Origin: Escherichia phage SDYTW1-F1-2-2_3 | Sequence record: OR296290.1 | DNA length: 64,000 nt | Direction: 5' to 3' (one strand) | Shown: one piece after another, positions 6,074-44,348 of the stretch | Layout of the letters: every line of letters begins with the position of its first letter | Numbering within the stretch: the first letter of the stretch is position 1 | Position numbers and translations under genes: made by a program | Notes under the pieces: generated by a model | Database searches by the model: none | Seen by the model: only the letters and a program-made list of their open reading frames with translations | What the model was told of the DNA's origin: nothing

Positions 6074-7270
6074 TTATTTTCCTAAAAATAATCCGCTCAT
6101 AACACCATCCCACTCAGAGGACGGAATCACTGAATACTCCGAACTTTGGTCCAGAGTTCCACTACTAAATCGCTGAACAATGTTATAGATGTTGAACATA
6201 TCTTTAGTCTCAGCGCGATAAGCGTAGACTAGTCTGTCAGCCGTTCTTTCATCTTTAGATACTCGACGAGCAAAGGTAACCAGAAGGTTATCACCTTTCA
6301 GTATTTCTGACTCATCTTTTACTAAATCAGGATGCATAACTGGCAAGAACATCGAGTTATTAACTCTCAATTCTGCTGTTTCGTCATTATCATAATGAAT
6401 CCACTTAAAGTCTTCATCACGGAAGTGACCGCATCCATCTCTGTATGACTGTTGACGCCAAGGTACTTGGAATGCTTCAGCATACTTATCAGCCATGCCT
6501 ACTGTAAACAGCGACGCTGGGAAGATACAAGCATCCCAATCATTACCAACCAGAGTTGCTTTCGTTTCACCCAAGAGGTTAGTGTAAGTGCTAACCATTC
6601 GGGAATAAACGTAAGCCTGAAGGATTGTCCAACCTTCAACCAACCATTTATGAAGGAAGGTTTCAACTTGACTCTCTTCATCTTCACAATAGAAGGTTCG
6701 ATCTAACATCAAATAGAACAGACAACGATCAGCAGGAACATTCTCAGTTGCTACACCCATAAAACCTTTATCGTGCCAGCGTAAACAGGAGGGACGATCT
6801 TTGTCCACAAATGCTTCCATAGCTTCCAGTACAGCACGAGGTGTGGTTTGATGTTCAGGGTTTTTACTGTTCCAACGATCAATGTTATTCTTAGGAGGTG
6901 TGTCTTCATCTTCATACGAACACCAACTTAAAGCTTCAGCTACGTGCTTTCCATCACGCCAGCGTCTAAAACCTAACATCTTCATGTGAGTTCCGGAGTT
7001 CCAGATATGCTTGATTTTACACATATCCATTTCTCGACTTAACAGGAACTCTTCCCCATCAGCACTACGAACGTTAGCTTCTTCATGCCACACTCGAACG
7101 TGCATATTCCACCCATGAGTTGCCTCATACATGTTAGGGTCGAAGTATTCATCTTCGTCATCATCTTCATCAACGCCACCATTATAGTTGCGAAGCTGAA
7201 GGAACCCATAACAAGGAGGGTGGACCGTTAAAACATTACCTTCAGTATCTTCTAATGTTACTGGAAACAT
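6074..7270 (-). CDS. hypothetical protein with acidic tract, in amidoligase cluster
   Basis: 398-aa ORF; DEDDDEDEY acidic run near N-terminus; family not recognised. Confidence 0.5.
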   Translation of the reverse strand: MFPVTLEDTEGNVLTVHPPCYGFLQLRNYNGGVDEDDDEDEYFDPNMYEATHGWNMHVRVWHEEANVRSADGEEFLLSREMDMCKIKHIWNSGTHMKMLGFRRWRDGKHVAEALSWCSYEDEDTPPKNNIDRWNSKNPEHQTTPRAVLEAMEAFVDKDRPSCLRWHDKGFMGVATENVPADRCLFYLMLDRTFYCEDEESQVETFLHKWLVEGWTILQAYVYSRMVSTYTNLLGETKATLVGNDWDACIFPASLFTVGMADKYAEAFQVPWRQQSYRDGCGHFRDEDFKWIHYDNDETAELRVNNSMFLPVMHPDLVKDESEILKGDNLLVTFARRVSKDERTADRLVYAYRAETKDMFNIYNIVQRFSSGTLDQSSEYSVIPSSEWDGVMSGLFLGK

Positions 7271-7281
7271 TATACCAACCT

Positions 7282-7644
7282 CTATTGGTTTTTAATCAAC
7301 TCAATCGACTTACGGATATAAAGAATATCTCGGAAGTTTCGATAGTTGTTCATAAATTGGTGCTTCTGGAAAGTAGCTTCTTCCAGAGCTTTCTTTGCTT
7401 CTGTGTAGTTTTTACGGGCAAGATGTACAACCCGCTCTGGTAACACATTTGCATGACGGATGACATACTTGTGAGCTTTCATGTTGCTTTGCTCACGAGT
7501 AATCTTACCTTTAGCAACTTTGATACCATTTGCAATCCAAGCAAGTTCTTGCTCAAGCTCATCGTTGGACATTCCACCGAGATTTGATGCAACCTTGTTC
7601 AGAGTTTCAATATTAACGTTGCCCTTAATGGGACGTGTATTCAT
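7282..7644 (-). CDS. hypothetical protein
   Basis: 120-aa ORF, tight spacing with neighbours. Confidence 0.45.
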   Translation of the reverse strand: MNTRPIKGNVNIETLNKVASNLGGMSNDELEQELAWIANGIKVAKGKITREQSNMKAHKYVIRHANVLPERVVHLARKNYTEAKKALEEATFQKHQFMNNYRNFRDILYIRKSIELIKNQ

Positions 7645-7646
7645 AC

Positions 7647-7799
7647 TTACTCCTGTTGTTTACACTCGTCAATAACCCACTGATAAGTGGATTGCCCAGA
7701 AAAGAAACACTGAATAAATCCAGATGTTCTCTGCGTTACCAGTGCTAGTGCACAAATCACTACCGCTGCTGCTAGCAGTTTTAAATCTAATTTAGACAT
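7647..7799 (-). CDS. small membrane protein (putative)
   Basis: Start moved to internal ATG (7797-7799) preceded by GAGAGGAAA SD; hydrophobic LLAAAVVICALALV segment. Confidence 0.35.
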   Translation of the reverse strand: MSKLDLKLLAAAVVICALALVTQRTSGFIQCFFSGQSTYQWVIDECKQQE

Positions 7800-7995
7800 A
7801 TTTCCTCTCGTTGAATTTAAAAAAGGACTCTCCGAAAAGAGCCAAGCTTTAAATCCAAAAAAGATATCACCCAATATCTGTGGATAACCTGCTCTTAAAA
7901 TATCTATCCGACGGATGTTTGAGGATTATTCCTCGCCCTAGCATCGGCCCCATACGGGAAATATATTAAGATTAGGTTAGTTGAGTTAGAATAAC

Positions 7996-8031
7996 TCACA
8001 TAGCCCTCCGAAGAAGGCTATAGGCGTTACT
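7996..8031 (-). promoter_or_regulatory. conserved stem-loop element at gene 3' end (copy 1)
   Basis: CTCACATAGCCC...GGCTATAGG...GTTACT overlapping the stop codon; second copy at 12331-12377. Confidence 0.4.
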
Positions 8032-8260
8032 CGCCTTTCTTAGCACGATCTTTGGCAGTTTTGCCAGTGCGGATACGATGGGAAACGTTAACCAGAGTGC
8101 CACCATCAACTACGGTAACGCTCTTGTTTTTAGCCAGATCAAACACAGTCTTCTCTGTGCCACCCAAGCGAATTTGCTTAGGCTCGCTGAAGGTTTGGGT
8201 TGATTTGGATTGGAACTGGAACGGTTGACGAATTGCATCGATTGCGCTTACTTTAGACAT
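8027..8260 (-). CDS. hypothetical protein
   Basis: Track ORF 8027-8338 trimmed to internal ATG at 8258-8260 (MSKVSAID...); longer form would run across a palindrome. Confidence 0.4.
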   Translation of the reverse strand: MSKVSAIDAIRQPFQFQSKSTQTFSEPKQIRLGGTEKTVFDLAKNKSVTVVDGGTLVNVSHRIRTGKTAKDRAKKGE

Positions 8261-8287
8261 AGGGAAATTCCTTAAAAAGTCATGGCT

Positions 8288-8309
8288 GCGTAGAGGGAAT
8301 TCCCTACGC
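8288..8309. promoter_or_regulatory. 22-bp near-perfect palindrome centred on GAATTC
   Basis: GCGTAGAGGGAATTCCCTACGC about 30 nt upstream of ATG 8260. Confidence 0.35.
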
Positions 8310-8331
8310 AAATTGGGCCGCCCACAGAGAG

Positions 8332-8349
8332 GCGTCATAGTACTAAAAG
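8332..8349 (-). promoter_or_regulatory. conserved 18-nt intergenic motif GCGTCATAGTACTAAAAG (copy 1)
   Basis: Identical 18-mer with palindromic core TAGTACTA, flanked by similar purine-rich sequence; just downstream of a minus-strand stop. Confidence 0.4.
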
Positions 8350-8365
8350 GAGGAGAGAAGAGGGA

Positions 8366-8482
8366 TTATTTAGCTACCTTTTTCTGTCCGTTTACGAACC
8401 AGATAATTGAACCGTCAGGCTGTCGTTGACCGAAGCCTTTCTGATTAATCATATCGTCATAAGAATACGCTTTACGTCTCAT
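8366..8482 (-). CDS. small basic protein (38 aa)
   Basis: ATG overlaps upstream TGA stop (ATGA) suggesting translational coupling; below track length cutoff. Confidence 0.3.
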   Translation of the reverse strand: MRRKAYSYDDMINQKGFGQRQPDGSIIWFVNGQKKVAK

Positions 8483-8739
8483 TTGTTTTCCTGTGGAGTT
8501 AAGATAATTTCAACCTTACTAAACTTCTCACCAACAACCATATCACCAGAGATGACACGTAGTTCTCCCGTGCCTAAATTAACAGCTCCAGCAGGTTGAC
8601 AACCTCTGCTCTTGGCTGTCATCATGTAAATCTTTTGATTCTGGCACTCTTGGAGTGTGAACACATCAGACATGTTTAGATCTTTAACACGAAGAACTGT
8701 CTTTTCTATGAAATCAACCTTGATACTGATAGTGCTCAT
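8479..8739 (-). CDS. small protein, GDVF-family paralog (putative)
   Basis: 86 aa; shares hydrophobic-x-x-(G/S)DVF ... C ... NLGTG pattern with neighbouring small proteins. Confidence 0.45.
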   Translation of the reverse strand: MSTISIKVDFIEKTVLRVKDLNMSDVFTLQECQNQKIYMMTAKSRGCQPAGAVNLGTGELRVISGDMVVGEKFSKVEIILTPQENK

Positions 8740-8744
8740 TGGTG

Positions 8745-8990
8745 TTATTCCTGAACCACTGACATACGAATCACTTCAACTGGGGCATCACTTTTCATAA
8801 CACCTAGTACACCAGTAAGAAGATTAACTGTAGTAATCCAACCTTCTTCGACAGAGATTTTGTTGGATACATTACTAACACGGATGTAGTACTGAGGAGT
8901 TGCTGTTCCTCGCTGAACTACGAAAGGGTTTCCGGGAATAATTGTAGCCAGTGAAACAGTGTTATCTTTAATCTTTGGGATGATCTTCAT
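8745..8990 (-). CDS. hypothetical small protein
   Basis: Track ORF trimmed to ATG at 8988-8990 immediately after upstream stop (8992-8994). Confidence 0.4.
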   Translation of the reverse strand: MKIIPKIKDNTVSLATIIPGNPFVVQRGTATPQYYIRVSNVSNKISVEEGWITTVNLLTGVLGVMKSDAPVEVIRMSVVQE

Positions 8991-8991
8991 A

Positions 8992-9222
8992 TTATTTACC
9001 CTGAATAATGAGTTTCGATTCGAACAGCTCAACAGTATTGGAATGAGGGACTGGAAAGAAAATATCTTTAGAATTCCGAACACCCATTGCAGAGTGGTCC
9101 CCTGTTTTTATCCAGAATTTAGGGACTACATCGTCACCAATAAAACGGAAAACATCTCCATTCTCCAAGTCAGAGAAAGTCTTGGAGGGTTCTTTACTTT
9201 TTGGTACTTGTTCAAAGTTCAT
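8992..9222 (-). CDS. small protein, GDVF-family paralog
   Basis: 76 aa; LENGDVFRF...KFWIKTGD motif. Confidence 0.5.
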   Translation of the reverse strand: MNFEQVPKSKEPSKTFSDLENGDVFRFIGDDVVPKFWIKTGDHSAMGVRNSKDIFFPVPHSNTVELFESKLIIQGK

Positions 9223-9230
9223 CTTGATTC

Positions 9231-9542
9231 CTATTTAAGTTTGAGGCTAATGTTAAGGTGCATACATGCCCTGTTCTGTACAGCAGCATAACTTCTACCG
9301 AGCATGTCAGCCATTCTCTGAATAGACATGAACCCAGCATTACGGATAAGGAACTGGTCTTCTTCTTTAGACCACTTGACTCGGATTACAGCTCTAGAAA
9401 TACCGAACTTAGTGCAAGCTGTATTAACTGCATTCTCCGTTACATTCATAATCTGAGCAACTTCTTGAACCGAGTACTCTTTGATTAGTCTCCGAAGATT
9501 TTCAATCTGCATCGGAGTCCATATAGTTCTTCGAGCTTTCAT
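9231..9542 (-). CDS. DNA-binding protein with two helix-turn-helix (Myb/SANT-like) repeats (putative)
   Basis: W..EEDQFL and VQEVAQIMNVTENAV segments; start set to ATG at 9540-9542 with GGTGG SD. Confidence 0.45.
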   Translation of the reverse strand: MKARRTIWTPMQIENLRRLIKEYSVQEVAQIMNVTENAVNTACTKFGISRAVIRVKWSKEEDQFLIRNAGFMSIQRMADMLGRSYAAVQNRACMHLNISLKLK

Positions 9543-9543
9543 T

Positions 9544-9765
9544 TTACCACCCATGTCGACTTTTAACTAACACACCATCAATTATCAGATAATGCGAATG
9601 CCTTATCATGTCTGAAGACAGATCTCCATGAGCGCTATTCCACTGAAGGAAGTTCATATCCTTCCAATCAGTGTAGTGCTTTTTGGCTTCTTCCTCTATC
9701 TGACTAAGAGTTACCCTTCTGAAAGGATACGGACTATGTTTGATAAGTGTTTCACATTTTGTCAT
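9544..9765 (-). CDS. hypothetical protein
   Basis: 73-aa track ORF. Confidence 0.4.
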   Translation of the reverse strand: MTKCETLIKHSPYPFRRVTLSQIEEEAKKHYTDWKDMNFLQWNSAHGDLSSDMIRHSHYLIIDGVLVKSRHGW

Positions 9766-10060
9766 ATACCCTCCGATTAAATGTTTATATAAGACTTGCT
9801 TAGATAAAGATTCAATAAAATAGGGGGAGGGGACGAATCCTCCCTTATCCTATTAATTACTATTGCATGTAAGATCTAACAATCGGTTGCCTTTTTAGGA
9901 GTAAGCGTTATGCTCATCCAGCACTAAACTCCCGCCCCCTTAGTGGGCTGGGTTATTAAAGGGTAACGCCCTTATGGGCTAGTTACGTGAATGTTAGTTT
10001 GATAGGAGATCTGAAGTCCTATCTCAAAGGACTCTCGTAAGAATCCTTCACGATAAGCTC

Positions 10061-10234
10061 TTAACACGATTGGTCACACGGCTGATCACCGCATGTTTTA
10101 CAGATCACTGGTGAGTAAATACAGGCAGGATATACTGACACACCGTCAAATGTCTCACACCCACAATCAGGGCATGTACCGTTGGATTCCATGTCATAAT
10201 CATCATCCACTTCACCACCACCAAAACAGCTCAT
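10061..10234 (-). CDS. Cys-rich mini-protein (57 aa, zinc-ribbon-like)
   Basis: MSCFGGGEVDDDYDMESNGTCPDCGCETFDGVSVYPACIYSPVICKTCGDQPCDQSC; abuts stop of upstream gene; below track cutoff. Confidence 0.4.
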   Translation of the reverse strand: MSCFGGGEVDDDYDMESNGTCPDCGCETFDGVSVYPACIYSPVICKTCGDQPCDQSC

Positions 10235-10243
10235 ATGAACTCC

Positions 10244-10465
10244 TCAGTAAACTAAACCTATAGCCTTTGCATCAGGCTGAGGGACTACTTTTGCACTAGG
10301 GCGATAGCCATCCACGGAGCCATTCCAAAGATTGACACAGGTGATATACCCATCGTTCAAGTAGTCTGTTTTAATCCAGAAGTGTTTATCATGACCAAAA
10401 ATACTTCCGTTTGGCAGTGTGGACAGTTCAACAGTTTTAAGGGATTGTTTAGAATCTAATTTCAT
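10244..10465 (-). CDS. small protein, GDVF-family paralog
   Basis: 73 aa; LPNGSIFGHDKHFWIKTD...CVNLWNGSV. Confidence 0.5.
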   Translation of the reverse strand: MKLDSKQSLKTVELSTLPNGSIFGHDKHFWIKTDYLNDGYITCVNLWNGSVDGYRPSAKVVPQPDAKAIGLVY

Positions 10466-10474
10466 ATAAGTTCC

Positions 10475-10672
10475 TTAACATACCAAACCGTGTAAAAGAA
10501 ACATCCTCTTTGTAAGCTCTGCTTTAGCTCTGTAATAAGCCTTAGAACCTAATAGGCGGCTCTTAACAAAGAACTTGATGTCATTGCTAACATCTTGTAT
10601 TAAACGCTCCTGTACAGCTTCTGAGGAGCTATTAATCGAATCAATTAACACCTTTGTAGACGTGTAATTCAT
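10475..10672 (-). CDS. hypothetical small protein
   Basis: Track ORF trimmed to ATG at 10670-10672 directly after upstream stop. Confidence 0.35.
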   Translation of the reverse strand: MNYTSTKVLIDSINSSSEAVQERLIQDVSNDIKFFVKSRLLGSKAYYRAKAELTKRMFLLHGLVC

Positions 10673-10673
10673 A

Positions 10674-10973
10674 TCACCATTCCTTACCGGTTGTAGTCGT
10701 AGAGCCACCACACCACAACGCTGTATCAATCACAACATTGTCTGGCGTAGACTTCTCTTCATTAATAGAAGGGTTAGCATTAGAGCAGGTTGCTCCGTTC
10801 CAGCGCATATCAATCTCACCAGAAGGAACCTTCTCACCTTTATGCCAGCGAGATACACAAATACCATCCACTGCTACTGCACACCATCCATCAGGACGGC
10901 TCTGTACGCAGCCTGTAAGGGCCACACAGACAAGGAAGATACAGATTAAGGATATTACACCACCCCAACTCAT
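10674..10973 (-). CDS. lipoprotein (putative)
   Basis: N-terminal MSWGGVISLICIFLVCVALTGC has signal-peptide h-region and LTGC lipobox; Cys-rich mature part. Confidence 0.5.
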   Translation of the reverse strand: MSWGGVISLICIFLVCVALTGCVQSRPDGWCAVAVDGICVSRWHKGEKVPSGEIDMRWNGATCSNANPSINEEKSTPDNVVIDTALWCGGSTTTTGKEW

Positions 10974-11077
10974 AACTGCCTCCTATTTGATTTGGCGCAC
11001 CGTGTAGGACTCCAACCTACAACCCATTTCTTAGAAGGAAATTGCTCTCTGCAATTGAGCTAACGGCGCAGAATTAT

Positions 11078-11242
11078 TTAGATCATATCTCGCTTGGTGA
11101 TATGACCACATGTCTTACATTGAAGTATATAACGGGTTCCAGTATCTTCTATTTTACCGAACTCATCATACACATTTAAACGAATCTCTTTGACTGTCTC
11201 CCACTCGTGAAGATGGAAGAGATATTTAAACCACTTGAACAT
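11078..11242 (-). CDS. small protein (54 aa) with CxxC..H motif
   Basis: MFKWFKYLFHLHEWETVKEIRLNVYDEFGKIEDTGTRYILQCKTCGHITKRDMI; SD AGAGGGA; packed against neighbours. Confidence 0.35.
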   Translation of the reverse strand: MFKWFKYLFHLHEWETVKEIRLNVYDEFGKIEDTGTRYILQCKTCGHITKRDMI

Positions 11243-11243
11243 A

Positions 11244-11417
11244 TCAATCCCTCTTTTTACGGAACTCTGTCAGATTGAAGATCTTAGCGTCACTTACAGA
11301 AACCCCTTGATTTCTATGGGCGCGGTCTCTGGCTCGTCGTATCTGTTGCTTGCTTAAGAAAAGAACGAGTGAGTATTCTTCTCCATCTTCGAAAAATTTA
11401 ACCTCTTTTCTTTTCAC
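11244..11417 (-). CDS. small basic protein (GTG start, putative)
   Basis: GTG at 11415-11417 preceded by GAGG SD 5 nt upstream; avoids overlap with 11425-11676. Confidence 0.3.
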   Translation of the reverse strand: MKRKEVKFFEDGEEYSLVLFLSKQQIRRARDRAHRNQGVSVSDAKIFNLTEFRKKRD

Positions 11418-11424
11418 ATTAACC

Positions 11425-11676
11425 TCAAGCACAAGCAGGGAGAGTGATGATTTTATATCGACCCTCAAACTCTCCAAATAAACCCAAGAATGTAGGACTG
11501 TAAGTACCAGTACAAACAAACTCATCAAACAGTGCGTTATAGCTAGGCTTAATCTTCCAAGCCCATACATAACCCATCTTGTCAATTGCAATGTAACGAG
11601 TGTTCAGAGGAACAGTCATCATTACACCGTCAACTTCGATCACTTTAGTGATTGGTGCAGCTTGAAAGTTTTTCAT
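11425..11676 (-). CDS. hypothetical protein
   Basis: 83-aa track ORF; ATG overlaps stop of upstream mini-gene (ATGA). Confidence 0.45.
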   Translation of the reverse strand: MKNFQAAPITKVIEVDGVMMTVPLNTRYIAIDKMGYVWAWKIKPSYNALFDEFVCTGTYSPTFLGLFGEFEGRYKIITLPACA

Positions 11677-11849
11677 ACTTTACCTTTAATAAAGATATCA
11701 TTACCACAGACACAGCATGAACGAACAACAGTAGCGCCACGCTGAACGATACGAACCTCTTCCTTAACCAGATTAACACGAGCACCACAGCAAGGAGAGT
11801 TAACATAAGAGTAACCAGCTTGTGTATTCTTGATTGTTTGCTTAGACAT
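11673..11849 (-). CDS. Cys-rich mini-protein (58 aa, zinc-ribbon-like)
   Basis: MSKQTIKNTQAGYSYVNSPCCGARVNLVKEEVRIVQRGATVVRSCCVCGNDIFIKGKV; AAGAGGAAG SD; verified codon by codon. Confidence 0.4.
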   Translation of the reverse strand: MSKQTIKNTQAGYSYVNSPCCGARVNLVKEEVRIVQRGATVVRSCCVCGNDIFIKGKV

Positions 11850-11890
11850 TTTAGCTTCCTCTTGTTAGTTTAAGTAAGAGTTGTCCCTTA

Positions 11891-11924
11891 ATTAAAACAA
11901 CAAAGGCCACCCGATTGGGCAGCC
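11891..11924 (-). terminator. rho-independent terminator (minus strand)
   Basis: On minus strand GGCUGCCC-AAUC-GGGUGGCC (two G-U pairs) then UUUGUUGUUUU. Confidence 0.5.
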
Positions 11925-11934
11925 TTTTTATCTA

Positions 11935-12075
11935 TTAACTATTATATGTCCAACTACCTTGCTTGTTACGAATAGCTGACATTGCATGAATCCAGAAGCC
12001 TTCCAGTTTCAGAGCACCGTTAGCTACTGCATCCATACGTTCAGGGCGGTTCATACGTTTGGTTGATACTTTCAT
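11935..12075 (-). CDS. small protein (46 aa)
   Basis: MKVSTKRMNRPERMDAVANGALKLEGFWIHAMSAIRNKQGSWTYNS; followed by a minus-strand terminator. Confidence 0.3.
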   Translation of the reverse strand: MKVSTKRMNRPERMDAVANGALKLEGFWIHAMSAIRNKQGSWTYNS

Positions 12076-12330
12076 ACCTATCTCTCTTTGTTAGTGGAGG
12101 CATTATTGCCAGTTAATATAAAGGGAAGCCCTACACGTTAAGGCTTCCGCTTGTACAAACTGTCGAGAACTCTCTACCCCTAGATTGTTCTCTATCCCAA
12201 ACCGATACGTACCCCTACATATCAGAAAGTCTTTCGAAAATTAACAGGTTTTAGTCTAACACCGGATGTTCGAGCAAGCTCTCCCTAGCGGTGTGGCATA
12301 TGCCTGATTAATAAGTTAATGAGGAACACC

Positions 12331-12377
12331 CTCACATAGCCCTCTGATAAACACAAGGGCTATAGGTCGGTGTTACT
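12331..12377 (-). promoter_or_regulatory. conserved stem-loop element at gene 3' end (copy 2)
   Basis: Same arms ATAGCCC/GGGCTAT with different loop; overlaps stop codon of 12373-12591. Confidence 0.4.
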
Positions 12378-12591
12378 TTTGAGATAAACACAGATCAGGA
12401 CGTGGCATAACAGTGGTTGATAGGCCGAAGACTTCAACAGAACCACTGTTCAAGTCAGCAGCTTTACACAAACCGTCAGGAGTTTTATCTTCTAGCATCA
12501 GCCAGAAACGTCTGTCGTAAGAGAAAACATCACCACCCTTAACATCTTCTGCATTTGCATATTTAGGATAATCAACTACTTTAATGTCCAT
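12373..12591 (-). CDS. small protein, GDVF-family paralog
   Basis: VKGGDVFSYDRRFWLMLED...C..DLNSGSV. Confidence 0.5.
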   Translation of the reverse strand: MDIKVVDYPKYANAEDVKGGDVFSYDRRFWLMLEDKTPDGLCKAADLNSGSVEVFGLSTTVMPRPDLCLSQK

Positions 12592-12601
12592 CTAATTGCC
12601 C

Positions 12602-12820
12602 TTATTGATAGATAGAAAGGTGGATAAGTTTATTCACATGAGCGAAGTTAGGAAGGATTTGCATCTCATTGTTGAAGATATTAAAACAACGAACCCCGCC
12701 CTCTACAGCATAAGCAGATTTCTGAAACAAACTCCCTCCCCACACAAACACATCATGTGTTTCAAGAGATCGTAACTGAACAGCCTCGTCAACAACCTTC
12801 TTTTCAATGTTCATATTCAC
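12602..12820 (-). CDS. small protein, GDVF-family paralog
   Basis: LETHDVFVWGG...GGVRCFNIFN. Confidence 0.45.
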   Translation of the reverse strand: MNMNIEKKVVDEAVQLRSLETHDVFVWGGSLFQKSAYAVEGGVRCFNIFNNEMQILPNFAHVNKLIHLSIYQ

Positions 12821-13068
12821 TTCCGATTGGTAATTACTGCATCATGGATAACTGAAACAGGTAAGTTTGAATCCAACTTCATTACTTGATTGGTGCTTAA
12901 ACTAAGCACTACACAACCATTCCGAAGATCAGTCTCTGACACATGTGGTGTATATAACTGAACGATCATGTAATAATCAATACATGTTGCCTTAACTTGG
13001 AACACATCACCAAGTTTCAAATCACCCACACGCAATTCTTTAGCTTTAAGGTTCAGATCAATCTTCAT
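12817..13068 (-). CDS. small protein, GDVF-family paralog
   Basis: LKLGDVFQVKATC...DLRNGCVV. Confidence 0.5.
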   Translation of the reverse strand: MKIDLNLKAKELRVGDLKLGDVFQVKATCIDYYMIVQLYTPHVSETDLRNGCVVLSLSTNQVMKLDSNLPVSVIHDAVITNRK

Positions 13069-14217: not shown

Positions 14218-14244
14218 TAAAAAAGCCCCAGCCGTAGCCGGGGC
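14218..14244 (-). terminator. rho-independent terminator (minus strand)
   Basis: GCCCCAGCC-GTA-GCCGGGGC (one mismatch) followed on minus strand by TTTTTT. Confidence 0.5.
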
Positions 14245-14304
14245 AAACCTGAAAGCAACACATGACCGTTGCTATAAATACACTCGCAAATGTACTTACA
14301 GCAA

Positions 14305-14330
14305 CGCAAAAAGCCGCTCAAAGGCGGCTA
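14305..14330 (-). terminator. rho-independent terminator (minus strand)
   Basis: AGCCGC-TCAAAG-GCGGCT hairpin followed on minus strand by TTTTTG. Confidence 0.5.
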
Positions 14331-14374: not shown

Positions 14375-14392
14375 GCGTCATAGTACTAAAAG
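14375..14392 (-). promoter_or_regulatory. conserved 18-nt intergenic motif GCGTCATAGTACTAAAAG (copy 2)
   Basis: Identical 18-mer downstream of stop of 14410-14853 and upstream of two terminator hairpins. Confidence 0.4.
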
Positions 14393-15573: not shown

Positions 15574-15675
15574 CTTTGATTAGATTCTTTGATTAATGCA
15601 CTAAATCAATGCACTGATAAAAGAAAAGGCGCTACCCGTTAAGATAGCGCCTTATGCTTATTTGAATTATCTTAC

Positions 15676-16575: not shown

Positions 16576-17396
16576 GATATTCACCTTTCAATTGTAAGGG
16601 CACTATGCCCCGCTCTCTATGAGCTTTTTAAGTCGCCATTGACTTATCGATAATCACTCATTGTTAAGTAATTATTGATAAGCGGGGCGGTCTTGTCAGG
16701 AGTTAACCTTGCCGCCCCCTTATCCGTGATGTTTCATCTGGTATCTTTAATTAGTCGCTATAAACGAAGCCGACCTGATAGCGATGATCAATCATCACAA
16801 TAAGGCTATGCGTCCGACTCTATTTAATTACATTACTGTAACCGTCGGCAATATCGTTTACTTTGCTTTCGCTCCCGCCTATCCTTTTATATCAGCTCTC
16901 TTTCGCTAGTCATCGCCCACTATGGGATACTATTGCGAAAGAGTCACTAACCGCCTACTATTCCGGCGTTTTATATCTTTCAGCAGGTTTACTACATAAA
17001 CCGGCTATGTACTTTCATCGTAAGACGAATCTCAAGCCGTTCACATCGTAAACGTTCGCACTAAACCTTATTGTTAAATAGCAATTTGCCATTCTTTAAC
17101 CATCCCCCACCGCCCTCAATTGGGCGTTAATTCGTCGGACTCGTCTGCCCTGATAAACTTCTTCACTGTAGCACCTTGTTAGCGATGGCTGCCGCTACCC
17201 TTAACCGTGGGCGATTAGCTTAAGCCGTTGCGTGTACTCAATGTATCCGCTTATCAGTGGCGACTTTTCCAGTTAAGGGATTGTAAAGCTGTTTACCCTG
17301 ATATTTTAGGGAGCCTTACACCGTTTTATCTGGTATGTTTTCCGATGGTTATTATCATCAAACATATGCAACCGATATATGGGAACGTTTAAATTA

Positions 17397-18155
17397 TTAA
17401 AGAGCGGTAAATCTGTCAGTGTGCTTTCTCACACTACGCAACTGTAAGCCGTTGTTTCGCTTTTCACTGAAGCGGTGATTTGCCTAGTGAGTACGCTCAT
17501 TATGGACCATGATGTTTTCGCTGTCAACCGCTTTTTTAATCTTTTTCGTCGTTCCCGCTATTGGGAGGATATATCAACCAGCTTTATTTGATTGAAGATT
17601 AAGCGGTGAGGCTTAACTCATGATTCACATTGTTAAAGAGCGTTTAGCCTTTTATAGTGTCTGCTAATCACTGCATCATTAAAGGCTTACTTATTCATTA
17701 ACGGGGCGCCTAAGCCCGAACTAATCGCCGCACTGTGTGCCACCTTTCCCGCGATACGTTGATTTGGGAACTAGTTAACGTTGTTTTGTTAACTTGTGGT
17801 TAGTATGAACTACCTTAACCACGTTTGCAACCTCTTTTTTATCATCTTCTTTTATTCTTTTCCCTTATCTCGCGTGAGTCTATGCGAAAGGGCAAGATGA
17901 TAAGTTTTTAAAGAGCGGGATGCTTTAAGTCATCGCTGACTATGCTCACTATATATCAGGCTATTTTCGGTGTCAATACTCTTTTTAAGAATATTTTCAC
18001 TTTCTAGCCTGATTTTTAAAGAGCGGGGCAATTTCTTGCCTTGTATGTTTTTCATCGTACCCGATGAATTGAAGTATACGCCAACCAGTGAGTAATGCAA
18101 TAGGGTAGGGCAAATTATTTTAAACTTTTTCACTATAGGAAGATAAAAGAGCGGG
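17397..18155 (+). repeat. five dispersed direct repeats of TTAAAGAGCGG(G) in a non-coding region
   Basis: Copies at about 17397, 17633, 17905, 18013 and 18144; inverted copy CCCGCTCTC at about 16608. Confidence 0.6.
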
Positions 18156-43295: not shown

Positions 43296-44348
43296 ATGTC
43301 TTTATTTGGAAAATCAGCTTCTAGCAAAACCACAGTGGCTCCTTCCTCTCAGGTTGATGCCCTGCTGAAGCAGATTGTTGCTAATGCTCAGAATATGCAG
43401 AACAACGATCAGGGATTTATTTCCCAACAGCTGGCTGGGTTTAATGGCAACCAACAAGGTGCTCTGAATAACTTAGCAGCTTCTACAACTCAAAAGCAAT
43501 TGGCTGATATGTACACACCTCGTACACAGCAAGGTTTGGACCAACTGAACTCTCTTGCCAAACAGTATCAGAATATTGTTAATGGTGGCGGTTTAACTGC
43601 TGATGGTGTTAACAACTTTAGTAAAGGATTAAATAGCTCAGCTCTTGCTCAGGCTACTAGCAAAGCAGCTTCTAATGTTTCTCTTGGCAATGGCTCTGAT
43701 TCAGGCTCTCTCCGTAGGGCTGCGGCTCAAGGGGCGGCTTTGAATGGTGCTAATACAAATCTATCTCGTACCATCAATGGTAAGAACATGGGAATCAGTG
43801 CTCTTCAACAAGACCAGAACTTCCAGAGAGGTTTGCTTGGTGCTCAGTCTGGTTTAGCTGGACAGAATCTCAATCTTGGTGCTCAAGGTGTTCAGTCAAC
43901 TCAGCAAGCTATCCAGAATCAACTTATGGCTGGTAATCTACAACAGCAACAAGCTCAAGCTCAAGCAGATATCAATTGGCAAAACGCTATTGGTTCTCAG
44001 CAGTATGGATGGAATCAGCTTAACAACCAGCTTAATGTATTAAACAGTGTAAGCCCAATGGCTGGATACACAATTAAGAATGCTGCTCCGGGGGTTAATA
44101 CTGGACAACAGCTCCTAGGTGCTGGTATCACTGGTTTAGGTATTGCAGGTCGTATGGGAGCTTTCTCTCCTAACCAACAGACTCAGAATGCTTGGAGTTC
44201 CTATAACAACTCAGGTGGGCAGTCTGGTATGGCTGGTCCTATGATTGGAGGTTCTAATCTTTCTCAACAGAAAGGTCAGTCTAACTGGTTATCCACAACG
44301 GGTAATAATATCTTAGGCGGTGTCTTAGGGGCATTCGGAGCAAACTAA
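43296..44348 (+). CDS. Q/N/G-rich internal virion protein
   Basis: 350 aa, low-complexity Gln/Asn/Gly/Ala; paralogous to next gene. Confidence 0.5.
   Translation: MSLFGKSASSKTTVAPSSQVDALLKQIVANAQNMQNNDQGFISQQLAGFNGNQQGALNNLAASTTQKQLADMYTPRTQQGLDQLNSLAKQYQNIVNGGGLTADGVNNFSKGLNSSALAQATSKAASNVSLGNGSDSGSLRRAAAQGAALNGANTNLSRTINGKNMGISALQQDQNFQRGLLGAQSGLAGQNLNLGAQGVQSTQQAIQNQLMAGNLQQQQAQAQADINWQNAIGSQQYGWNQLNNQLNVLNSVSPMAGYTIKNAAPGVNTGQQLLGAGITGLGIAGRMGAFSPNQQTQNAWSSYNNSGGQSGMAGPMIGGSNLSQQKGQSNWLSTTGNNILGGVLGAFGAN

Follow-up and report, generated by a model that had tools for sequence, protein, structure and literature searches.

Two paralogous, conserved RNA modules at gene 3′ ends in the early operon of a phiEco32-like coliphage

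A window of 64,000 nucleotides from Escherichia phage SDYTW1-F1-2-2_3 (OR296290.1), which is a phiEco32-like coliphage (Kuravirus), was found to contain two paralogous copies of an RNA module. Conservation at the RNA level extends across Kuravirus for both copies and, for copy 1, reaches the Salmonella phage 7-11 group as well. The original prediction had described two look-alike stem-loops on the sense (minus) strand at the stop codons of two unrelated open reading frames (ORFs). These stem-loops exist, but the 36- to 47-nt hairpin is not the whole unit: each is the first helix (H1) of an apparently undescribed folded module of ∼125 to 135 nt that also comprises a small competing hairpin (H1b), a 3-bp hairpin (P3), and a hairpin with an invariant 7 × 7 internal loop (S2). 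Copy 1 forms a complete unit of ∼215 nt, with H1 at one end and a conserved intrinsic terminator at the other (Table 1).

The minus strand is the gene-sense strand of a long σ70-driven early operon of more than 50 genes, in which the element occupies only two sites. Early promoters are confined to the extreme right of the genome (PMC4281155). The modules lie directly 3′ of a stop codon, whatever ORF comes before: the upstream ORFs 8027..8338(−) and 12373..12591(−) belong to different PHROGs and gave no alignment with each other in BLASTP, and the upstream ORF varies between phages while the element keeps its place. The gene after copy 1 starts at ATG 7799, with gp79, the primase/helicase gp75, and the exonuclease gp74 among the genes downstream; the gene after copy 2 starts at ATG 12075. 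The genes that follow the element are of different kinds, coding for a small membrane protein or an endolysin.

Table 1. Positions of the features of both module copies in the window
Feature	Position	Strand	Description
TAA stop, ORF 8027..8338	8027..8029	−	within 5′ foot (AGUAAC) of copy-1 H1
Copy-1 H1	7991..8030	−	lower stem GUAAC/GUUAU, internal mismatches, upper stem UAUAGCCUU/GGAGGGCUAUG, loop CUUC
Copy-1 H1b	7983..7997	−	GAGUUA-UUC-UAACUC; U-A to C-G compensation in ECBP2/4E8 lineage
Copy-1 P2, 5′ strand of long-range helix	7959..7980	−	CUAACCUAAUCUUAAUAUAUUU; from alifold and pair counts
Copy-1 P3	7949..7958	−	CCC-GUAU-GGG; CCC/GGG, GCC/GGC, GGC/GCC covariation
Copy-1 S2	7908..7947	−	outer stem CCGAUG/CGUCGG, inner hairpin GAGGA/UCCUC
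Copy-1 34-nt segment	7870..7903	−	AUAUUUUAAGAGCAGGUUAUCCACAGAUAUUGGG; P2 3′ strand, single-stranded stretch, first arm of next hairpin
Double DnaA box (sequence match)	7879..7898	−	TTAAGAGCA-GG-TTATCCACA; downstream box is perfect consensus
Copy-1 variable hairpin	7863..7878	−	GAUAU-UGGGUG-AUAUC; absent or different in 7-11 group
Copy-1 intrinsic terminator	7816..7853	−	A-tract UUUAAAG, stem GGCUCU..AGAGUCC, then U6
TAA stop, ORF 12373..12591	12373..12375	−	within 5′ foot of copy-2 H1
Copy-2 H1	12325..12376	−	lower stem AACACC/GGUGUU, internal loop, 10-bp upper stem, 12-nt loop; inverted repeat I7
Copy-2 alternative hairpin H1b	12321..12333	−	GAGG-GUGUU-CCUC; from sequence and alignment
Copy-2 P3	12295..12304	−	GGC-AUAU-GCC
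Copy-2 S2	12259..12294	−	outer stem ACACCG/CGGUGU, inner hairpin GAGC/GCUC
Copy-2-specific 3′ domain	12115..12258	−	invariant AGACUAAAACCUGU; differs between Kuravirus lineages
Hairpin, copy-2 3′ domain	12225-12202	−	GGGG loop
Hairpin, copy-2 3′ domain	12192-12165	−	CUAGGGGUAG loop, covarying stem
Terminator-like hairpin, copy-2 3′ domain	12148-12124	−	poor U-tract

The arm shared by the two hairpins, CTCACATAGCCC, occurs at exactly two plus-strand sites, 7995-8006 and 12331-12342, so that both predicted sites stand but the first starts one base before position 7996, where it had been placed. The partner arm common to both copies is GGCTATAGG (8016-8024 and 12358-12366); the 10-mer GGGCTATAGG is exact in copy 2 only, copy 1 having AGGCTATAGG. 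As predicted, a terminal GTTACT (AGUAAC in the sense strand) is present in both copies and holds the two TAA stops, and the loops differ, with CUUC in copy 1 and 12 nt in copy 2. Folding of the sense strand, the check that had been proposed, gave −22.7 kcal/mol for copy 1 and −24.4 kcal/mol for copy 2 (z ∼ −4; 0 of 200 shuffles as good). Repetition of a 12-mer alone was within chance (342 recurring 12-mers in the window versus ∼150 in shuffles). The repeat is nevertheless real, because the similarity runs on collinearly for ∼125 nt and a covariance model of the module (R1) matched only these two sites in the window. The pattern GCTAGGG-N-GAG..CTC-N-AACATCCG occurred twice versus 0 times in 100 shuffles, and the S2 sequence pattern had 2 occurrences versus 0 expected. 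H1 was rejected as an intrinsic terminator, there being no U-tract after it and no H1 call in the terminator scan. The genuine terminator of copy 1 lies ∼150 nt beyond H1, is kept with its U6 in all copy-1 sequences, and carries a terminator annotation in the 7-11 and 4E8 records.

A search of relatives detected the element in essentially all of them, with copy 1 in 103 phage records, copy 2 in 98, and the module kept in ∼100 Kuravirus genomes; GAP52 was without it. In the distantly related 7-11 group, whose genome-wide nucleotide similarity to Kuravirus is low (PMC8948821), copy 1 was 70 to 75% identical and at the same syntenic place, and 7-11 itself has one copy only, 19 kb from its promoters. 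Among 19 copy-1 sequences, 99.2% of cells were paired, versus at most 52% with partners slid, and 12 pairs had compensatory changes, a score reached by 0 of 500 shuffles. The core alignment of 25 sequences from both copies was 98.7% paired, versus ∼41% when slid, with 9 compensatory pairs. Five compensatory pairs fell in S2, and three, between Kuravirus and the 7-11 group, in helix 4 of the copy-1 alignment, the evidence for P2. The copy-2 lower stem covaries as C-G/U-G/U-A. A non-Watson-Crick position of S2 exhibited A.G in 13 sequences, C.A in 10, and A.A in 2, and never C-G, with the A.G/C.A switch having arisen independently in three lineages. Copy 1 folds better in the sense than in the antisense strand, and the G-U pairs of the module function on the sense strand only. 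These compensatory changes, sense-strand G-U pairs, and A.G/C.A covariation showed selection on RNA structure. This agrees with the earlier proposal of selection on an RNA structure or recognition site rather than on coding sequence, as do the invariant arms and the loops of 4 to 12 nt. The copy-1 H1 upper-stem core AUAGCC/GGCUAU was unchanged in 25 of 25 sequences, and the S2 internal loop, CUAGGG(N) × (N)AACAUC, is invariant in both copies. With just 5 bp, the copy-1 lower stem is short; it is mutually exclusive with H1b and is broken in the ECBP2 lineage.

Rfam searches with the element gave no family match even at an E value of 10, and neither a tRNA nor a conserved promoter matched it. 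A scan for σ70-type promoters found none inside the copy-1 unit and none between its terminator and the next gene, and no gp36-type motif was seen on reading the unit; the unit must, therefore, be co-transcribed with the upstream genes.

The 34-nt segment of copy 1 matched the strand antisense to the leader of nrdD, the Escherichia coli gene for the anaerobic ribonucleotide reductase, at 32 of 34 positions, and the matching leader sequence was present in 5,325 of 5,426 E. coli genomes. The segment could form a duplex with the host nrdDG leader that extends up to the Shine-Dalgarno sequence, with 33 of 34 positions paired, and that was predicted at −50.2 kcal/mol versus −15.6 kcal/mol for P2, the helix in which half of the segment is sequestered. 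In 13 Kuravirus variants, 0 of 36 columns of the segment varied, versus 6 of 29 in the strand with which it pairs intramolecularly. A search of 50,697 phage records located the 34-mer in Kuravirus only. No host match was detectable for copy 2. As DNA, the segment contains a phage site, tTTAAGAGCAggTTATCCACAg, identical at 21 of 22 bases to the nrdD double DnaA box tTTAAGAACAggTTATCCACAg, which was bound by DnaA in ChIP-seq; E. coli has only 16 such DnaA-bound regions (Stringer, Fitzgerald and Wade 2024; PMC11317965). In vivo, DnaA binds pairs of boxes 2 to 3 bp apart, and single boxes are usually unbound (PMC11317965). The phage copy has the same 2-bp spacing, and its flanks match at a further 11 of 12 positions, but it is located in an early operon, inverted relative to transcription and inside what is predicted to be a structured RNA.

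DnaA binding, and not RNA pairing, could be what keeps the 34-mer invariant (PMC11317965). An element in copy 1 that acts at the DNA level and recruits host DnaA to phage DNA would account for the near identity to the nrdD site with the paired-box spacing bound in vivo (PMC11317965), for the perfect box being unchanged in every copy-1 sequence, and for the location at the boundary before replication genes; proposed variants are a roadblock or attenuator immediately before the terminator, a DnaA sink, or part of an origin, with the flanking nrdD identity due to capture of host DNA. This explanation is rather improbable, as copy 2 and the shared core, with its RNA-specific covariation and G-U pairs, are left unexplained, the sole mismatch to the nrdD site is in the upstream box, within its conserved ACA, but would still be a G-U pair in an RNA duplex, and the upstream half-box is essentially absent in 7-11. 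The site is not origin-like, because the 64 kb contain only two perfect boxes and GC-skew showed no shift at 8 kb. The early-region RNase III sites of T7 (R0.3 to R1.3) are irregular internal-loop hairpins between early cistrons, alike within the genome, and their processing can leave the upstream message with a 3′ hairpin that protects it. The Kuravirus element is also an irregular internal-loop hairpin between early cistrons, with its two copies alike, but it differs in having only two sites for >50 genes, conservation for ∼90 nt past the hairpin, and a short lower stem. The T7 precedent, the placement exactly at ORF 3′ ends, and an irregular 16- to 20-bp helix with an internal loop favor a hairpin acting alone, as an RNase III site, factor-dependent terminator, or 3′ stabilizer of the upstream mRNA, with the other similarity incidental. 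The copy-1 loop is also of the C(UUCG)G type discussed as an mRNA stabilizer in T4 (PMC8948821). The irregular helix of H1 and this copy-1 loop are compatible with putative RNase III and stabilizer roles, but these leave the equally conserved S2 and P3 unexplained. We consider a lone hairpin improbable, since S2, P3, and P2 are conserved like H1 and covary, the stem keeps an unchanging sequence although drift would be expected in a purely structural hairpin, conservation does not extend to the UUCG loop, no U-tract follows H1, and a >50-gene operon has two sites only.

An unlikely but more serious contender is a cis-acting processive antiterminator, in which nascent H1 and S2 bind the host RNA polymerase that made them, enabling it to pass operon-internal terminators and so to express delayed-early genes. 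The put elements are ∼70 nt long, consist of two adjacent stems arranged as a V, and lie close to promoters. The module resembles putL and putR of HK022 in having two related copies per genome in host-RNA polymerase early operons, upstream of terminators that need read-through, and in its invariant nucleotides and non-canonical G.A/C.A-type pairs in both hairpins, as in put stem II, where such pairs are essential (PMC9378689). With no early promoters except at the extreme right of the genome (PMC4281155), a copy-1 terminator 20 nt before the next gene, and no scan-detected promoter between them, gp79, gp75, and gp74 need read-through, and Lavysh et al. considered antitermination very likely in 7-11, by an undefined mechanism (PMC8948821). 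However, ∼45 nt and two further helices separate the hairpins, the module has H1b, P2, and P3 and lies kilobases from promoters, and similarity to put was not evident, as judged without alignment. Transcription from the early promoters would meet strong terminators at 15653, 14329, and 14244 before it reached copy 2, the single 7-11 copy is 19 kb from promoters with terminator-like hairpins upstream of it, and GAP52 lacks the element. Least probable, and by our estimate very unlikely, is a riboswitch-like attenuator, in which the H1-P2-P3-S2 junction senses a ligand or protein and sets read-through of the copy-1 terminator. The order is classical (a multihelix junction with invariant unpaired nucleotides, intrinsic terminator, ribosome binding site, and gene), but no conserved antiterminator pairing was found (AAGAGC/GCUCUU occurs in Kuravirus only), copy 2 has the core without a consistent terminator, the downstream genes are unlike, and Rfam gave no match.

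The reading that we favor, although at somewhat less than even confidence, is that the modules are two paralogous structured non-coding RNA units within the early operon. Hfq-type small RNAs from 3′ untranslated regions or operon-internal sites (CpxQ and SroC), as well as phage and prophage small RNAs, arise by processing, and copy 1, having no promoter of its own, would do likewise. Its 3′ part resembles theirs in that a conserved single-stranded seed is combined with a small hairpin, A/U-rich sequence, and a terminator hairpin with U6, but the predicted RNA differs in its large structured 5′ domain and in a complementarity of 34 nt, far beyond the usual seed and half sequestered intramolecularly. 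T4-type PeSL cassettes are promoter-early stem-loops at ORF boundaries; like them, the modules are repeated intergenic stem-loop cassettes placed where variable early ORFs end, but they are much larger, lack a promoter, and show RNA covariation. Points against structured non-coding RNA units are the short copy-1 lower stem and its disruption in the ECBP2 lineage, the sequestration of half of the 34-mer in P2, the lack of a host match or a consistent 3′ terminator in copy 2, the match of only 18 to 19 nt between the Salmonella phages and the Salmonella nrdD leader, and the lack of an obvious benefit to the phage from silencing a ribonucleotide reductase.

If the modules are structured non-coding RNA units, they would be released from the polycistronic early transcript. 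The neighboring tRNA-Arg must likewise be released from this transcript. H1 would form the 5′ boundary, as a boundary, processing, or protection helix, and an RNase III-type cut in its irregular 16- to 20-bp stem would provide the upstream mRNA with a protective 3′ hairpin. Through the invariant parts of H1 and S2, both copies would contact a single conserved partner, which may be a protein or RNA polymerase. What makes each copy specific would be its divergent 3′ domain. In copy 1, the specificity domain would be the 34-nt stretch that can pair with the nrdDG leader and that, as DNA, reproduces the host's DnaA double box.

The window region 7000 to 13000 is a leftward (minus-strand) early gene cluster containing many small ORFs annotated without a function and a single tRNA-Arg gene. 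Megablast of this region returned 108 phage records, all phiEco32-like (Kuravirus, Gordonclarkvirinae) with 90 to 95% identity. The original prediction, made from the sequence alone, was of two copies of a stem-loop, here termed H1, overlapping the stop codons of unrelated minus-strand genes. Both copies were found, with CTCACATAGCCC occurring exactly twice on the plus strand, a common partner arm of GGCTATAGG and a GTTACT ending each copy; minor amendments are that copy 1 begins at 7995 and has AGGCTATAGG as its second arm. On the sense strand, AGUAAC carries the UAA stop of the preceding ORF in both cases, and the proteins encoded by these two ORFs are without relationship, as had been proposed. 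Folding of the two copies produced stable sense-RNA hairpins (−22.7 and −24.4 kcal/mol, z of approximately −4). The repeated 12-mer is not significant by itself (342 repeated 12-mers in the window versus ∼150 in shuffles); a chance repeat was rejected for the whole module, the 12-mer taken alone being unremarkable. An exact 18-nt repeat, GCGTCATAGTACTAAAAG, was also observed in the window; its sense-strand form, CUUUUAGUACU-AUG-ACGC, would be the leader and start codon of two different early ORFs, i.e., a translation-initiation region common to both.

Alignment of the two minus-strand regions detected further common blocks, indicating that the repeat is far larger than a hairpin. Approximately 45 nt past H1, both copies contain GCUAGGG-N-GAG-hairpin-CUC-N-AACAUCCG, a pattern present twice in the window and in none of 100 shuffles. 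This block, S2, is a hairpin with an invariant internal loop and is closed by a copy-specific 6-bp stem (CCGAUG/CGUCGG versus ACACCG/CGGUGU), while a tiny 3-bp hairpin, P3, is located between H1 and S2 (CCC-GUAU-GGG versus GGC-AUAU-GCC). RNAalifold predicted 51 pairs for 19 distinct copy-1 sequences, comprising H1, a competing hairpin (H1b), a terminator hairpin and a long-range helix, P2 (UAACCU/AGGUUA plus CUUAAU/UUAAG), which closes a junction holding P3 and S2. A helix of the P2 type was unsupported across lineages in copy 2, whose 3′ domain differs from that of copy 1, is lineage variable and has two hairpins that covary, CUAGGGGUAG forming the loop of one. A kink-turn reading of S2 was rejected as it needs a GAUG/CAUC stem, which fails in copy 2, and a similarity between CCGAUGCUAGGG and loop E of 5S rRNA was judged to be due to chance, being confined to one strand and lost in 7-11. 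Each predicted stem-loop forms the 5′-most helix of a structured RNA module that appears to be new. No match at the gathering score was detected in a scan of the window with Rfam 15 families (riboswitches, ribozymes, sRNAs, leaders, tRNA/tmRNA); in a search extended to E values of up to 10, the core was without a match and unrelated subthreshold matches fell outside it. ARAGORN detected no tRNA in the window other than tRNA-Arg. A tRNA, a tmRNA or a known RNA family was rejected as the identity of the module due to this absence of matches.

Features of the window and related phages and matches to R1, the covariance model of the module core
Feature	Sequence	Position	Detail
CTCACATAGCCC, copies 1 and 2	Window	7995-8006; 12331-12342 (+)	
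GGCTATAGG, copies 1 and 2	Window	8016-8024; 12358-12366	
GGCTATAGG, other occurrence	Window	10257-10265	Coding sequence
ORF preceding copy 1	Window	8027..8338 (−)	
ORF preceding copy 2	Window	12373..12591 (−)	
Double DnaA box of copy 1	Window	7898-7879	
Terminator of copy-1 unit	Window	7843-7819	GGCUCU..AGAGUCC + U6
Terminator scan listings	Window	7843-7826; 12148-12124	
ATG of gene after copy-1 terminator	Window	7799	
Other perfect DnaA box TTATCCACA	Window	44289-44297 (+)	
tRNA-Arg	Window	10993-11069	
18-nt repeat GCGTCATAGTACTAAAAG	Window	8332-8349; 14375-14392	
Hairpin in phi32_100/101 gap	Window	9815-9844 (−)	GGGAGGATTCGTCCCCTCCC+CCTATTTTAT
Counterpart of this hairpin	7-11 (L012)	8934-8962	AGGCGGCTCGTCCCCGCCT+CCCTATTTTA
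Near-consensus sigma70 promoters	Window, region 16671-17976 (−)	17976-17948; 17527-17499	TTGACA-17-TATAGT / CATAAT
Strong terminators	Window	15653, 14329, 14244 (15626-15653, 14225-14329)	
gp128, ProQ/FinO family	pSal-SNUABM-01 (L013)	13041-13769	
Gene-free gap	7-11 (L012)	7073-7783	711 nt
Subthreshold tmRNA_permuted match	7-11 (L012)	7346-7490	29.6 bits (gathering score 47)
R1 matches	This window		2 (132.9 and 95.3 bits)
R1 matches	4E8		2
R1 matches	phiEco32 locus L001	59.5-69.8 kb	2
R1 matches	7-11 and pSal-SNUABM-01	39-kb early regions	1 each
R1 matches	phiEco32 20-kb stretch, covering part estimated missing from window	40-60 kb	0
R1 matches	GAP52		0

Searches of relatives with blastn matched 103 phage records for copy 1 and 98 for copy 2, and phiEco32 itself has both, in the phi32_90/91 and phi32_112/113 gaps. 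Copy 1 was also present, with 70 to 75% identity, in Salmonella phages 7-11, SE131, SeKF_80 and pSal-SNUABM-01 (the 7-11 group), which belong to a different family (Grimontviridae) with little nucleotide similarity to phiEco32 (PMC8948821). In this group, copy 1 occupies the same site, after a phi32_92 homologue and one small ORF. The upstream ORF varies among phages, its end being always at, or no more than 9 nt from, the first base of the element. Scans of IMG/VR and metagenomes added variants to give 34 distinct sequences overall; IMG/VR locus L003 and several metagenome matches to the S2 pattern without H1 were discarded as chance matches or fragments. A search for further copies had been suggested; R1 again matched two sites in 4E8 and in phiEco32 locus L001, and no third copy was detected in the window, in the 20-kb phiEco32 stretch or in GAP52. 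Another GGCTATAGG in the window and a weak R1 match in phiEco32 are both coding sequence. Cronobacter phage GAP52, with no R1 match, has genes for an anaerobic ribonucleotide reductase of its own, NrdD/NrdG (gp053/gp058); nrdD was not seen in the phiEco32 and 7-11 stretches examined. A second intergenic hairpin, terminator-like and located in the phi32_100/101 gap, is also common to Kuravirus and 7-11. In 7-11, two tRNA-like 3′ ends, GGTTCGAATCCTTGGTCGTCCCACC and GGTTCGACTCCTGATGCCCGCTCCA, lie in a gene-free gap that follows gp135, the homologue of phi32_112; ARAGORN detected nothing in this gap and Rfam a subthreshold tmRNA_permuted match. The gap may encode an unannotated tRNA-like or two-piece tmRNA-like RNA.

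The proposal of selection at the RNA level was strengthened by covariation and by the invariance of the H1 arms despite a loop of 4 to 12 nt. In the alignment of 19 copy-1 sequences, 99.2% of cells were paired versus 52% or less with slid partners, 12 pairs exhibited double changes and the covariation score was reached by none of 500 shuffles. For the core of both copies (25 sequences), 98.7% of cells were paired versus ∼41% when slid, with nine compensatory pairs. Several pairs take a G-U form that exists on the sense strand alone, and the lower stem of copy-2 H1 passes through C-G, U-G and U-A. The positions flanking the inner helix of S2 are A.G (n = 13), C.A (n = 10) or A.A (n = 2) and never C-G, with Kuravirus copy 1, copy 2 and the 7-11 group each showing independent A.G/C.A switches; this covariation is the mark of a structured non-canonical pair. 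No variation occurred in the H1 upper-stem core (AUAGCC/GGCUAU) or in the internal loop of S2 (CUAGGG / AACAUC). Since these nucleotides are invariant though the H1 loop varies in length, they appear to be read as sequence and are presumably contacted by a partner. The annotation of pSal-SNUABM-01 places gp128, an RNA-binding protein of the ProQ/FinO family, in the early operon that also holds the RNA unit, and this protein is a possible candidate for the partner; in 7-11 the counterpart position is occupied by gp122, annotated as a hypothetical protein only. A DNA operator for a dimeric protein was rejected, as the spacing of the TATAGCC to GGCTAT half-sites varies from 10 to 16 bp, which argues against such an operator.

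An intrinsic (Rho-independent) terminator typically comprises a G+C-rich hairpin with a U-tract directly after it. H1 is followed by UCUAACUCAAC in copy 1 and CCUCAUUAAC in copy 2, and was rejected as a terminator due to the lack of a U-tract directly after the hairpin; the terminator scan listed sites further downstream instead. The copy-1 unit runs to a conserved intrinsic terminator, and this ∼215-nt unit, from stop codon to U-tract, is the part conserved between Kuravirus and the 7-11 group. In copy 2, a terminator-like hairpin with a poor U-tract was present in some lineages only. The ribosome-binding site and ATG of the next gene lie only ∼20 nt after the copy-1 terminator. A sigma70 scan detected no promoter within the copy-1 unit or in the stretch from its terminator to the next gene. 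A promoter inside the element was rejected, as inspection by eye also identified no tAATGTAtA (gp36) motif and no hexamers other than weak ones that are not conserved. Early sigma70 promoters of SU10 and 7-11 are located at the far right of the genome only (PMC4281155, PMC8948821). This location and the lack of a local promoter indicate that the copy-1 unit is transcribed within a polycistronic early RNA. Downstream genes, those for gp79, the primase/helicase and the DNA polymerase exonuclease subunit among them, would require read-through of the copy-1 terminator. Two near-consensus sigma70 promoters in the window are probably the early promoters reported between CDS120 and CDS121 of SU10; strong terminators lie between them and copy 2.

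A blastn comparison of the copy-1 RNA with 5,426 complete E. coli genomes detected matches in 5,325, usually at one site of 34 nt with 32/34 identities. The host match falls on the antisense strand of the 5′ leader that precedes nrdD, the gene for anaerobic ribonucleotide reductase, and its end coincides with the nrdD Shine-Dalgarno sequence. This 34-mer of copy 1 has extended complementarity to the nrdD translation-initiation region, in the manner of a trans-acting antisense or Hfq-type sRNA, and as a putative regulator could pair with the nrdDG leader at 33/34 nt. Copy 2 had no host match, even at E = 10, and a reverse search with the nrdD leader of 50,697 phage records detected only Kuravirus. 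The predicted duplex of the 34-mer with nrdD is −50.2 kcal/mol versus −15.6 kcal/mol for P2; RNAduplex calculations with the full RNA over-extended and were left unused. Within Kuravirus, the 34-mer is the sole segment of the copy-1 unit without a variable column (0/36, versus 6/29 for its intramolecular partner). We infer that the nrdD leader is transcribed across the matched site because the NrdR and FNR boxes lie >150 nt upstream of the ATG.

The matched segment also contains a double DnaA box. ChIP-seq of E. coli identified only 16 DnaA-bound regions, including one that precedes nrdD and carries the double box tTTAAGAACAggTTATCCACAg; DnaA needs box pairs spaced by 2 to 3 bp, the dimer site in vivo being two 9-mers at this spacing, one of which matches or closely resembles the TTATCCACA consensus (Stringer, Fitzgerald and Wade; PMC11317965). 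Copy 1 has TTAAGAGCA-GG-TTATCCACA, the second 9-mer being a perfect box, and this phage double box, tTTAAGAGCAggTTATCCACAg, is a candidate DnaA site, with occupancy known for the host nrdD site only. One of the two differences from E. coli in the 34-mer is an A-to-G change that weakens the upstream half-box and still permits G-U pairing with nrdD mRNA. Identity continues 4 nt and 8 nt past the double box (11/12 matches), and the phage flanks follow the E. coli-specific TTTTAAGA and CAGAAATTGGG, not TTTGTAAGA and CAGAGGCCGGGG of Salmonella or those of other Enterobacteriaceae. The 7-11 group retains GGUUAUCCACAG, with a match to the Salmonella leader of 18 to 19 nt only, and in 7-11 only the downstream box is recognisable. 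Among nrdD leaders of 120 Enterobacteriaceae species, 21 nt (CTCTGTGGATAACCTGTTCTT) just upstream of the Shine-Dalgarno sequence are conserved in nearly all genera, a stretch that exceeds the 9-nt DnaA box and fits with strong constraint on the double-box operator. One other perfect DnaA box is present in the 64-kb window; a replication origin at copy 1 was rejected, there being no skew shift and no box cluster. Judged by these comparisons, the 34-nt match is not due to chance and may reflect DNA-level DnaA binding, RNA antisense pairing or both.

The reading that we favor, albeit tentatively, is that the early operon contains two non-coding RNA units that are paralogues of each other. In this reading, H1 would serve as a helix for boundary marking, processing or protection, the nucleotides of H1 and S2 that do not vary would form a binding surface, and the 3′ domains would confer specificity, copy 1 being aimed at the nrdDG operator or leader. 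A DNA-level DnaA element is improbable as an explanation and would account for copy 1 only, copy 2 having no DnaA box. RNase III sites span around 20 bp, or two helical turns, of largely uninterrupted double-stranded RNA and frequently include an internal loop. The H1 helix of copy 2 has 6 + 10 bp around an internal loop (22-nt arms, 77% complementary) and that of copy 1 has 5 + 9-10 bp, with the lower stem broken in ECBP2. That the element is a bare RNase III or stabiliser hairpin is somewhat less probable again than a DnaA element. A riboswitch-like attenuator is the least likely of the alternatives. Such attenuators have a conserved antiterminator pairing in competition with the terminator, and the candidate here, AAGAGC/GCUCUU, was present in the alignment in Kuravirus only and not in the 7-11 group.

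The HK022 antiterminator RNA put binds the zinc-binding domain of the RNAP β′ subunit and suppresses downstream terminators. A put-like antiterminator would supply the read-through needed in these phages but is weakened by the positions and architecture of the copies and is, in our view, unlikely, ranking next after the favored reading. The put RNA is ∼70 nt with two adjacent stem-loops (PMC9378689), whereas here H1 and S2 are ∼45 nt apart, with H1b, a P2 strand and P3 between them. An extension of the non-coding RNA reading, to which we assign a similarly low likelihood, is that copy 1 is a virulent-phage regulatory unit doubly exploiting the host DnaA operator at nrdDG: the RNA would be antisense to the leader, the DNA would be a DnaA dimer site before a terminator gating replication genes, and the H1-S2 core would be a new RNA fold for a conserved host or phage factor.

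No description of the module was found in the phiEco32, SU10 and 7-11 papers searched or in Rfam. Structured RNA in a phage early transcript is of a known kind, while this fold and the mimicry of the nrdD operator appear to be new. Sigma-factor takeover has phiEco32 and 7-11 as its model phages, and the module bears on how their single, very long early operon passes internal terminators and how early RNA is processed; according to Lavysh et al., the antitermination strategy "remains to be defined" (PMC8948821). A conserved, covarying fold at only two operon-internal boundaries is a concrete, testable candidate for a role in antitermination or processing, or could represent a new class of non-coding RNA in phages. 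It is unusual for a virulent phage that copy 1 is nearly identical, in antisense orientation, to the experimentally defined nrdDG DnaA operator, and this opens the question of host-operator mimicry, at the RNA or DNA level, for reprogramming of nucleotide metabolism or sensing of replication state. If the dual exploitation of this operator is true, the nrdDG target would be hard to mutate away because DnaA must bind it too, and phage delayed-early expression and host anaerobic dNTP synthesis would both be tied to the state of the host replication initiator.
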